A model generated the notes under the pieces. It was not told the DNA's origin. It made no database searches and saw only the letters and a list, made by a program, of their open reading frames with translations. This document shows positions 9,487-13,115 of a stretch of DNA of 64,000 nt, piece after piece (position 1 is the stretch's first letter; each line of letters opens with the position of its first letter). The position numbers were made by a program, and so were the translations under genes. This stretch comes from Escherichia coli (GTDB lineage: Bacteria > Pseudomonadota > Gammaproteobacteria > Enterobacterales > Enterobacteriaceae), in assembly GCF_044324785.1 (NCBI RefSeq), contig NZ_CP172127.1; one strand, 5' to 3'.

Positions 9487-11832
9487 ATGTCATCAACTAA
9501 TTTCAGCCAGATTGCAGCCTTCCTGTGGTCTGTCGCCGACCTGTTACGCGGCGATTTTAAACAATCACAATATGGACGAATTATTCTTCCTTTTACCCTT
9601 TTGCGTCGTCTGGAATGCGTACTCGAAACAACGAAAGACGCGGTCATTACCGAGGCGCAAAAAGTAAAAGCCATGAAACTGCCGGAGGAAGCCCAGGAGA
9701 AAATGATCCTGCGGGCGACTAATGGCCTCACGTTCTTCAATGCCTCAGCGATGGATCTCAGCAAAATGGGGCAAAATGGCATACAGGACAACCTGGAAAA
9801 CTACATCCAGTCGTTCTCTTCGGATGCCCGCGAAATTTTCGAACACTTCAAGTTCAGCGAGTTTGTCGGACAGCTGGCGGATGCAAACTTACTGTTCAAA
9901 GTGGTGCAAATATTCGCTAAAGCAGATTTATACCCGGAGCACGTCACCAACCACGATATGGGGCTGGTATTTGAGGAGCTGATCCGACGTTTTGCCGAGA
10001 GTTCTAACGAAACCGCCGGGGAGCACTTTACCCCGCGTGATATCGTCAATCTGACCACCTCGCTGGTGTTTTTCGATGATGATGATGCACTCAATAAAGA
10101 CGGCATCATCCGCACCATTTACGACCCAACAGCAGGAACCGGCGGCTTTCTCTCTTCCGGCATGGAGTACGTCCACAAACAAAACCCCAATGCCGTGATG
10201 CGCGCGTTTGGTCAGGAGTTAAACCCGGAATCCTACGCCATCTGCAAAGCCGACATGCTGATTAAGGGCCAGGACGTCAGCCTTATCAAACTCGGCAACA
10301 CCCTTTCCAACGATCAACTCCCCGCAGAAAAATTCGATTACATGCTCTCTAACCCACCTTTCGGCGTGGACTGGAAAAAGATCGAATGCGACATCAACGA
10401 CGAGCACAAACTCCAAGGTGCTGATGGCCGCTTTGGCCCCGGCCTGCCCCGCGTCTCCGACGGTTCGTTGCTGTTTCTGCTGCACCTGATCAGCAAAATG
10501 CGCGATGCCAAAAGCGGTGGTGGGCGGATCGGCATCATTCTTAATGGCTCTCCGTTATTCACCGGCGGCGCGGGCAGCGGTGAAAGCGAGATCCGCCGCT
10601 ACATTCTGGAAGCGGATTTGCTGGAAGGCATTATCGCCCTGCCCACCGACATGTTTTACAACACCGGTATCGCTACCTATGTGTGGATTTTGTCGAATAA
10701 AAAAGCGCCTGAGCGCAAGGGCAAAGTCCAGCTTATCGACGCTAGCAACCTGTGCGGCAAGATGCGTAAATCGCTGGGGTCAAAACGCAATATTCTCGGG
10801 GAGGAGGATATTGGTTTAATCACCCGCACGTTTGGCGATTTCGAACCCGTTGCCACCACTACGCTTGCGGCGTTAGGCCTGGAGAAAGCACCCGAACAAA
10901 AATCCAGCCGGGGACGCCAGCCCGCAACAACCAAAACCGAGGCGGCAAAAACTTTTGCCAGCAAAGTCTTTCACAGCACCGAGTTTGGCTATCGTCGCAT
11001 CACCGTTGAGCGCCCGTTGCGCCTGTCGGCTCAGATAAGTGATGACGCCATTGCCACATTGCGCTTTGCGCCGAAGCCGTTTATCGCTCCGATGGCGCAA
11101 CTGTATGACGCCTTTGCTTTCCAGTGGCAGGACGGTCATTACGGCGACTTAACAGCGGTAGAAAGTGAAGCCCGCGCCATTCTTAAAGCCGATTTTAGCG
11201 AGCTGAAAGAGAAGCAAATTAAAGATCTGCTCAACAGCAAATTATGGCTGGCCCAGCGCGGGTTAATGGAAAAAGCGCGGCGTATTCAGGCGGCGATGGG
11301 TATGCAGGCGGGCGGCAAAGACACCGTTAGCAATGACTTTAATCAGTTCCAGTTGACGCTGAAAGAGGCGTTCAAAACCGCAGGCGTGAAGCTGGATGCG
11401 AAAGAGAACAAGCAGTTTATTGATGCCATTACCTGCAAAAACCCGGATGCCGAACCAGTTATCAGCAAGGTACTGAAAGAAGCAGCCCAACCGTTGTACG
11501 GCGCGTTTGAGTACCACGGAAAGGTTGTGGAGTTTGAGCCGGATGGCGACCTGCGTGATAACGAGAATGTGCCGTTAAATCCGGCGGTATCTACCAGCGA
11601 GTTGATCGAGGGTTACTTCAAAGCAGAAGTATTGCCGCACGTCGCGGATGCGTGGATTAACGCCGATAAGCGCGATGCGAAAGATGGGGATATCGGGATT
11701 GTGGGGTATGAAATTCCGTTTAATCGCCATTTTTATGTTTATCAACCGCCAAGGCCGCTGGAGGAGATTGATGCGGATCTGGATGCGGTAAGTGCTGAAA
11801 TTATGAAACTGTTGCAGGAGGTACATTCCTGA
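9487..11832 (+). CDS. hsdM: Type I restriction-modification DNA methyltransferase subunit HsdM (N6-adenine, NPPF motif) with long C-terminal extension
   Basis: 781 aa from ATG 9487 (AAGGA upstream); AdoMet motif [10 protein letters not shown] and catalytic [11 protein letters not shown]; about 230 extra C-terminal residues compared with HsdM sizes I recall; stop overlaps hsdS start (TGATG). Confidence 0.85.
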
Positions 11833-13115
11833 TGGCTACATACAAAAACTATCAACAAACCAATTTGTTAGGATTAGAAATACTTCCATCTCATTGGGAA
11901 GTAAAAAAAATTAAGCATCTATTTTCAATTGGTCGAGGTAGAGTCATATCTCAAGCGGAATTAGAAGATGAAGGTATGTATCCAGTATACTCATCGCAAA
12001 CACATAATGATGGATGCTTAGGTTATATTAATAGCTATGACTTCAATTGTGAGCAAATTACATGGACTACGGATGGTGCAAATGCTGGAACTGTTTTTCT
12101 TCGGAAAGGCAAATATAACTGCACAAATGTATGTGGAACATTACAACCAATAAATAAAGAAAACTTTTTACAATTTCATTTATATTGCTTGCAGTACATC
12201 AATCAATTTCATAAGCGCCCTGATACTAATGGGGCGAAGATAATGAATAATGAGATGGCCGAAGTATATATTCCACTACCTTCTAACCAAGAGCAATTAC
12301 GAATCACCACCTTCCTCGACCACGAAACCGCAAAAATCGATAACCTAATCGAGAAACAACAACAATTTATTGAACTATTGAAAGAAAAACGTCAGGCCGT
12401 GATTAGCCATGCGGTGACAAAAGGGCTAAATCCTGACGTGCCGATGAAAGATTCTGGAGTTGAGTGGTTGGGAGAAATGCCTGAACATTGGCATTTTACT
12501 CGAGCTAAATTTGTTTCAAACATATTTGTTCCGCAACGAAATAAGCCAGAGTTAAATGATGACATTGGTATTTTTTGGATAACAATGGAAAACATGAGTC
12601 AACCATATATAACATCTTCCTTTCAATATGTTTCTGACGTTGCAGCACTAAAATCAGGCTCAAAGATATTACCAAAAGGAGCCGTAATAGCCAGCTGCGT
12701 TGGTAATTTTGGAATTGCTGCAATCAATGAGGTCGATGTTATTATCAATCAACAATTGCAAGCATTTCAGACCTTAAGTATAAAGGCCGATTTTCTCATG
12801 GCTTTAGTTTCTATTTCTAAAAAGTATTTTGAAATCATTGGCACCGCTGCAACCCTTGCATATGTAAATAAAGAAGGTTTTGAAAATCTTCCTGTTGTTA
12901 TTCCATCGGAAAATGAACAAATTAATATTTGTAAATACATTAGAGATAAAAATAAAAAGTTTGAAATATTGATTGAGCGTTCCATGCACCAAATTGAGTT
13001 ACTCCAGGAACGCCGCACCGCCCTTATCTCCGCCGCCGTCACCGGCAAAATAGATCTCCGCAACTGGACCGCCCCCATCGCCAAAACGGAAGCACCCACG
13101 GAGGCCAGCGCATGA
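11832..13115 (+). CDS. hsdS: Type I restriction-modification specificity subunit HsdS
   Basis: 427 aa; two AT-rich variable regions (putative target-recognition domains) separated by a GC-richer central conserved block ([40 protein letters not shown]) and a C-terminal conserved block ([20 protein letters not shown]); start/stop coupled to hsdM and hsdR. Confidence 0.8.
   Translation: [427 protein letters not shown]

Follow-up and report, generated by a model that had tools for sequence, protein, structure and literature searches.

Evidence for target-recognition domain exchange in an AT-rich hsdS gene of an Escherichia coli type I restriction-modification operon

The gene hsdS lies within hsdMSR, a type I restriction-modification (R-M) operon, in the 64-kb stretch of Escherichia coli DNA analysed here (contig NZ_CP172127.1, 64,000 nucleotides, referred to below as the window). 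It is very probably the specificity gene of an intact operon in which cassettes carrying the two target-recognition domains (TRDs) have been exchanged one by one by homologous recombination, the AT-richness of the TRDs being a generic feature of such genes. An earlier note on this DNA had proposed, from AT-richness seen by eye, that the TRDs of hsdS were acquired by recombination. Comparison of alleles shows such exchange directly, although the composition of the gene does not. The genes of the operon, and the cassettes and conserved regions (CR1 and CR2) of hsdS, are as follows.

9478..11832, plus strand: hsdM, methyltransferase subunit, open reading frame (ORF) of 784 aa; Pfam HsdM_N and N6_Mtase; PADLOC MTase_I, E = 1e-280; GC 0.518
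11832..13115, plus strand: hsdS, 427 aa, intact; Pfam Methylase_S (PF01420, E = 1.1e-40) in two stretches; PADLOC Specificity_I, E = 5e-104
13112..16375, plus strand: hsdR, restriction/translocase subunit, 1087 aa; Pfam HSDR_N, ResIII/SWI2_SNF2 and T1R_D3-like; PADLOC REase_I; GC 0.501
11800..12457, plus strand: TRD1 cassette as exchanged, comprising the last 33 nt of hsdM, a divergent N-terminus (22 residues), TRD1 (GC 0.34, third-position GC, GC3, 0.27) and most of CR1
12312..12482, plus strand: CR1, central conserved region, aa 161-217; 84-100% nucleotide identity to all E. coli alleles of the family; GC 0.43; crossover site
12483..12998, plus strand: TRD2 cassette, aa 218-389, comprising the globular TRD2 and the variable first half of the second long helix; GC 0.33, GC3 0.25
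12999..13115, plus strand: CR2, C-terminal conserved region; 88-100% nucleotide identity to E. coli alleles; GC 0.63; putative crossover site

Reassortment of the TRDs among E. coli alleles

When the 6.9-kb operon was searched against 5426 complete E. coli genomes it was matched in 116, with strain N3 (NZ_CP031609) giving one full-length match at 99.5%. In 113 of the 116 the identity was 95-97% but the query coverage 83-86%, in 2-4 pieces, the gap being hsdS. Alignment of the HsdS proteins from 12 fetched loci gives three conserved blocks, an N-terminal motif of 25 residues, a central block of 51 and a C-terminal block of 26. The TRDs between these blocks are unalignable and reassort independently across the 12 alleles: TRD1 is common to L004 and L005, which do not share a TRD2; the TRD2 of L004 is also that of L002; the TRD2 of L005 recurs in L003, L007, L008 and L009; and TRD1 is common to L003 and L010 and, separately, to L006 and L009. 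In nucleotide comparisons the window keeps an identity of 90-100% with the other alleles as far as ~11821, falls to 10-50% (unaligned) over 11852-12300 and recovers to 84-100% over 12310-12490, after which identity is low over 12490-12990 and restored from ~12995. Over the TRD1 region, 11852-12300, none of the other 10 E. coli alleles can be aligned with it, nor can its TRD2 be aligned with those of other E. coli alleles. The homology breakpoints, at ~11835-11850, 12310, 12490 and 12995, coincide with transitions in GC content. The TRDs have been exchanged by recombination, the evidence being comparative and not compositional; the proposal of the earlier note holds as far as exchange is concerned, and fails in its use of AT-richness as the diagnostic, since all the TRDs examined are AT-rich.

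For TRD1 the extent of the exchange can be delimited. The tract 11800-12457 (658 nt) has zero differences from that of another E. coli locus, L020 (GCA_019587845.1), which encodes P0189, while the flanking hsdM and hsdR of L020 differ from those of the window by 2.5 and 3.7% (97.5 and 96.3% identical) and its TRD2 is unrelated. By simple arithmetic the chance of a 658-nt identical run at 3% divergence is about 2e-9. The tract marks a recombination event that replaced one TRD cassette and no more, with the left crossover in the 3' end of hsdM, beside a GC change-point at 11790, and the right crossover in CR1. Unlike in the alleles of the enterobacterial families discussed below, the TRD1 cassette here also replaces the conserved N-terminal motif (25 residues), so that the left crossover falls within the 3' end of hsdM instead of inside hsdS.

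In a full-length protein search the same TRD1, with its divergent N-terminus, recurred in E. coli in combination with no fewer than five further TRD2s (P0186, P0187, P0189, P0190 and P0192). In Morganella (P0195), Lelliottia (P0197), Klebsiella (P0202) and Cronobacter (P0216), homologues of TRD2 are paired with TRD1s of other types; outside E. coli the nucleotide identity is about 75% where checked, and a Vibrio homologue, P0290, is more distant. Exchange through crossovers in the flanks is thus shown for TRD1 of this allele, and for TRD2 we infer it from the family pattern and from these homologues in other genera at about 75%. A predominance of 'half-size' HsdS relatives in TRD-only protein searches was not used, as it is probably an artefact of search length, only proteins shorter than about 1.75x the query being returned.

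Across the E. coli population, near-identical hsdM and hsdR genes are paired with many different TRDs. In the mechanism proposed, one TRD cassette at a time would be swapped by homologous recombination, the crossovers falling in conserved sequence on either side of it (the 3' end of hsdM; CR1; CR2 together with the 5' end of hsdR). By analogy with other type I enzymes, a new TRD pairing would give a new combination of half-sites and with it a new bipartite specificity. Carriers of this hsdS are predicted to methylate and restrict a bipartite sequence unlike the one recognised by E. coli in which the same hsdM/hsdR accompany another hsdS, which would have consequences for the lineage in transformation efficiency, in plasmid and phage uptake and in the interpretation of its methylome. 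TRD reassortment among allelic hsdS genes is known biology, textbook knowledge since the 1980s, and nothing here is new in kind.

Several points weigh against this reading. The TRD2 cassette is without a second E. coli allele except for that of strain N3, which carries the whole allele. The operon at L019, encoding P0184, has both TRDs at the same divergence as hsdM/hsdR, the nucleotide identity of 76-80% being uniform over hsdM, TRD1, CR1, TRD2, CR2 and hsdR, and the TRD1/TRD2 pairing may be an old one instead of a recent product of this lineage. The enzymatic activity of the system and its bipartite recognition are predicted only, and the possible causes given below for the TRDs staying AT-rich are likewise proposals only.

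The DNA of TRD1 and that of TRD2 each occur in one of the 5426 complete E. coli genomes, that of strain N3. Since the exact 427-aa HsdS is present on 281 public contigs, all of them E. coli where named, this hsdS is a lineage allele and not one strain's own. The strain-specific recognition sequence expected in the earlier note was in this respect overstated, as at least 5 further E. coli alleles have TRD1 alone, and another organism has a homologous TRD1 and TRD2 pair.

Between the window and strain N3 (L001) hsdS and hsdR are identical, and the two sequences remain so to about 18800 but for 1 single-nucleotide polymorphism (SNP); the end of collinearity is marked by a YhgA/Rpn-family (Transposase_31) gene (19226-20182, minus strand). 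In hsdM there are 35 SNPs between about 9600 and 11500 (98.5% identity), which indicates that the 3' part of the gene, near 11500, holds a further junction left by recombination. In some E. coli of this family hsdM is frameshifted (Trh52 and OkiPb01695; L004 310-2665 and L006 310-2645), and in LS4 hsdR is shorter, 3072 nt vs 3264 nt (L008 3959-7030); the system would therefore be inactivated in part of the population.

Composition of hsdS and its possible causes

The GC content of hsdS is 0.377, compared with 0.518 for hsdM and 0.501 for hsdR, and the profile along the gene is not flat. Two AT-rich halves, 11850-12290 (0.338) and 12480-12990 (0.335), and a C-terminal block of host-like composition, 12991-13115 (0.608), are found at about the positions given in the earlier note, whereas the central block, 12291-12479, which it had also described as host-like, is intermediate at 0.434 and does not form a separate segment. 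A likelihood-based, unbiased change-point analysis was carried out over 10800-14200, with models compared by the Bayesian information criterion (BIC). The flat model was rejected (logL from -2351.8 to -2297.3, BIC from 4711.7 to 4635.3), the best model having three segments, 10800-11789 (0.527), 11790-12974 (0.350) and 12975-14200 (0.543), with the AT-rich block beginning within hsdM, ~40 nt before its 3' end. A GC-normal central block emerges only in a 6-segment model of worse BIC, as 85 nt at 12390-12474 (0.53). By codon position (1/2/3) the GC content is 0.47/0.34/0.33 in hsdS vs 0.57/0.38/0.61 in hsdM, with a GC3 of 0.61-0.62 in hsdR; the drop in hsdS falls mainly at synonymous sites, with a GC3 of 0.25-0.27 in the TRDs. 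Stretches of 440 nt that are equally AT-rich account for about 5% of positions in the window because it contains other AT-rich islands (GC below 0.36), at 25400-27600, 40300-41200 and 54100-57600, the first of which overlaps the gene for a 696-aa pentapeptide-repeat protein (25818-27908).

The same contrast is seen well beyond this allele. When the hsdS genes of 16 loci were segmented by conserved motifs, all TRDs had a GC of 0.31-0.41 and a GC3 of 0.19-0.36, whether hsdM/hsdR were at 0.50-0.53 (E. coli, Klebsiella, Cronobacter and Morganella) or at 0.42-0.45 (two Vibrio); CR1 was at 0.39-0.51 and CR2 tracked hsdR (0.48-0.64). Between the window and L019 the identity at four-fold degenerate sites is 0.44-0.57, and in both the GC3 is 0.24-0.27 in the TRDs and 0.55-0.62 in hsdM/hsdR. 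With about half of the four-fold sites diverged and the GC3 contrast the same, the contrast has therefore been maintained over deep divergence. In EcoKI of K-12 hsdM/hsdR have a GC of 0.55 and hsdS 0.40; within this hsdS the GC is 0.30-0.41 in the TRDs (GC3 0.10-0.37), rises to 0.43-0.47 in the central block and reaches 0.53-0.57 in the C-terminal one. As all alleles and hosts and EcoKI have the same profile, the GC mosaic is a generic property of hsdS, independent of host, across type I families. It is compatible with a shared pool of TRDs, and is silent on when or whether this allele was assembled. The methodological point is that low GC in the TRDs of hsdS is unfit as a sign of recent or strain-specific acquisition, cassette exchange being seen instead in the comparison of alleles.

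Recent import of the TRDs from an AT-rich donor, with the DNA as yet un-ameliorated to E. coli composition, would fit a TRD GC of 0.33-0.34 and GC3 of 0.25-0.27, far under those of hsdM/hsdR, and also the rarity of the TRD DNA, found in 1/5426 complete E. coli genomes. It is nevertheless quite unlikely, given that the low GC is the same for every TRD, allele and host examined, including Vibrio with hsdM/hsdR at 0.42-0.45, that the contrast is unchanged between two operons differing at about half of their four-fold sites and that the profile recurs in EcoKI, a member of an unrelated family. The nearest relatives of the TRDs outside E. coli are at 75-80% nucleotide identity, so that no recent donor is identified, and as a diagnostic the import reading is largely refuted. 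It is very unlikely, too, that the low GC merely follows from the abundance of Lys, Asn, Ile, Phe and Tyr in DNA-binding TRDs and has no evolutionary meaning. While GC is also lower at the first and second codon positions of hsdS (0.47 and 0.34) than of hsdM (0.57 and 0.38), the biggest drop is at third positions, 0.33 vs 0.61 and 0.25-0.27 in the TRDs, which amino acids do not explain; a check for equal GC3 in the TRDs and the conserved regions found them unequal.

A decaying or unselected hsdS, drifting to AT by mutational bias, might be expected to have a GC3 close to that of hsdS, which is near the expectation for AT-biased mutation, and hsdM is frameshifted at some related E. coli loci. 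Such decay is extremely unlikely for an ORF that is intact, full length and translationally coupled to both neighbours, and whose exact protein occurs on 281 contigs; moreover, the amino-acid identity of the TRDs to L019 is 0.78 at a four-fold identity of 0.44-0.57, as for hsdM/hsdR, which argues for purifying selection. Inversion systems in Mycoplasma, Streptococcus and Bacteroides also yield mosaic hsdS genes, and it was only for this reason that intracellular switching by site-specific inversion among hsdS copies (a phase-variable shufflon) was considered; no point in its support was found, and its probability is close to negligible. A tblastn search with HsdS over the whole 64-kb window matched only hsdS itself, the single copy present (next match E = 0.24); inverted repeats in or around hsdS were neither long nor significant, the best arms being 27 nt with 74% complementarity, and there is no recombinase gene inside the operon. 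Since the window lacks another copy of hsdS, long inverted repeats and a recombinase, the cassette exchange must have occurred by allelic recombination with incoming DNA.

That the TRDs are kept AT-rich in an active, host-independent equilibrium, their composition being no passive footprint of transfer, is a tentative suggestion, and on present evidence a doubtful one. It would fit with the TRD GC3 of 0.19-0.36 in all hosts, with its stability over synonymous divergence and with the matching profile of EcoKI. A possible cause is that the TRDs, being without internal homologous recombination, escape the GC-biased gene conversion that acts on hsdM, hsdR and CR2. Alternatively, AT-rich codons in the TRDs might possibly be selected, for example for H-NS binding or for throttled expression of a newly acquired specificity.

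Architecture of HsdS and relation to known type I systems

HsdS has two Methylase_S-type target-recognition domains according to both PF01420 and PADLOC. In an AlphaFold model of the protein (mean pLDDT 71) TRD2 and both long helices are above 85 (TRD2 about 88-92) and TRD1 is poorly modelled (pLDDT 31-42). In the model a long helix (aa 152-197 and aa 360-403) comes after each of two globular domains, and CR1 contains most of the first helix together with a linker. The solved HsdS structures were all matched by the model, Foldseek pairing it with 1YF2 (E = 9e-22), 3OKG, the HsdS of EcoKI (2Y7C_A), 5YBB_D and the HsdS of EcoR124 (7BST_A), and the predicted fold is that of an HsdS with a long conserved helix after each TRD. 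No TRD of known specificity was found that is close enough to predict the recognition sequence, the best solved relative being 1YF2, the S subunit of M. jannaschii (phmmer E = 3e-24; Foldseek 19% identity). To our knowledge the target of 1YF2 has not been determined. CR1 and CR2 are 39% identical as protein over 54 aa, and no DNA repeats able to mediate TRD duplication were found inside hsdS, which has only 13-15-nt chance matches. HsdS is modular, in the order TRD1, CR1 helix, TRD2, CR2 helix. In type I enzymes each TRD reads one half of the target and the helices set the spacer, with M2S1 methylating and R2M2S1 restricting (PMC3874165; PMC12707154); half-site reading and spacer-setting helices may be carried over to this HsdS from that established knowledge.

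The formal criterion for membership of a type I family is subunit complementation, and membership was judged here by sequence similarity. On this basis the operon does not belong with type IA (the EcoKI family), the identity to EcoKI being low and partial, 28% over 265 aa for HsdM and 29% over 142 aa for HsdS; in a search of the PDB, EcoKI HsdM was matched with E = 1.4e-11 over the catalytic core only. Type IC (the EcoR124 family) was similarly rejected, with E values of 8e-26 for HsdM (partial), 3e-5 for HsdS and 3e-10 for HsdR over 65 aa only. NCBIfam gave only sub-threshold matches to generic hsdM, hsdR and hsdS, and the operon may belong to type IB, ID or IE (EcoAI, StySBLI and KpnBI, the last being the type IE prototype, from Klebsiella pneumoniae), which are likewise chromosomal type I systems of enterobacteria. 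Operons of Klebsiella, Cronobacter and Morganella have 76-78% nucleotide identity to this one. Directly after hsdR, the Klebsiella and Cronobacter relatives have an McrB-like AAA gene. Other relatives have an extra gene between hsdS and hsdR, Abi_2 in Acinetobacter cumulans (L017 5472-6395) and RhuM in Vibrio vulnificus (L018 5308-6318).

Allelic hsdS variation is reportedly seen in the IA family, where StySP and StySB gave StySQ, and in the IC family with EcoR124 and EcoDXXI. Reviews cover this kind of variation, produced by TRD reassortment, among the type I systems of enterobacteria (PMC3874165; PMC12707154), and reassortment of hsdS TRDs at population scale is described for Xylella fastidiosa (bioRxiv 10.1101/2022.09.01.506293). 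The operon resembles the enterobacterial allelic systems in its conserved hsdM/hsdR, its TRD1-CR1-TRD2-CR2 arrangement, the independent assortment of the TRDs, crossovers in conserved regions and a chromosomal site in the immigration control region. With EcoKI of K-12 it shares this chromosomal region, the AT-rich TRDs, intermediate central block and GC-normal C-terminal block of hsdS, and a 1-nt overlap of hsdM and hsdS (PMC3510504). It differs from EcoKI in family, in gene order (hsdM-hsdS-hsdR here vs hsdR-hsdM-hsdS in K-12) and in the length of HsdM (784 aa vs 529 aa).

The operon and the immigration control region

By gene content hsdMSR is an ordinary, intact type I restriction-modification operon, of predicted activity. 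HsdS is encoded together with HsdM and HsdR, in the order hsdM-hsdS-hsdR and with overlapping stops and starts, and all three ORFs are called as type I R-M subunits by PADLOC. The stop codon of hsdM shares 1 nt with the ATG of hsdS (TGATG), which is preceded at 10 nt by an AGGAGG motif, and the hsdS stop and hsdR start overlap by 4 nt (ATGA). In RefSeq relatives the start of hsdM is annotated 9 nt further downstream, giving 781 aa; HsdS is already in RefSeq as WP_096984443.1, 'restriction endonuclease subunit S'.

The operon occupies the immigration control region of E. coli, between yjiA and yjiS/yjiR. Its upstream neighbours are CstA and a CobW-family gene, and in strain N3 yjiS and yjiR are annotated immediately downstream. 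In the window this region (4810-17200) runs from the CobW-family gene (4810-5850) through a Fic-like ORF (6325-7059, sub-threshold in Pfam), gmrSD, hsdMSR and an ORF of 237 aa to yjiS/yjiR; unlike in K-12, mrr and mcrBC are absent from it. The GmrSD-type gene (7103-9202, minus strand) encodes a type IV, modification-dependent nuclease of 699 aa with an extra C-terminal DUF5655, and both it and the Fic-like ORF are divergent from hsdM. Several related E. coli (N3, A37, Z142-6 and GF60) have it only in truncated or pseudogene form, with an IS4 adjoining it in N3. The 275-nt spacer between it and hsdM (9203-9477) is very AT-rich (GC 0.25-0.30).

The 237-aa ORF (16441-17154, plus strand) starts 66 nt 3' of hsdR, is likewise very AT-rich (GC 0.26-0.31) and is membrane-protein-like. 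It has no Pfam match above threshold (a weak DUF898, E = 4e-4) and no PADLOC match. A hypothetical protein is annotated for it in every E. coli locus examined with this R-M family, and it could be a candidate passenger gene linked to the R-M system.

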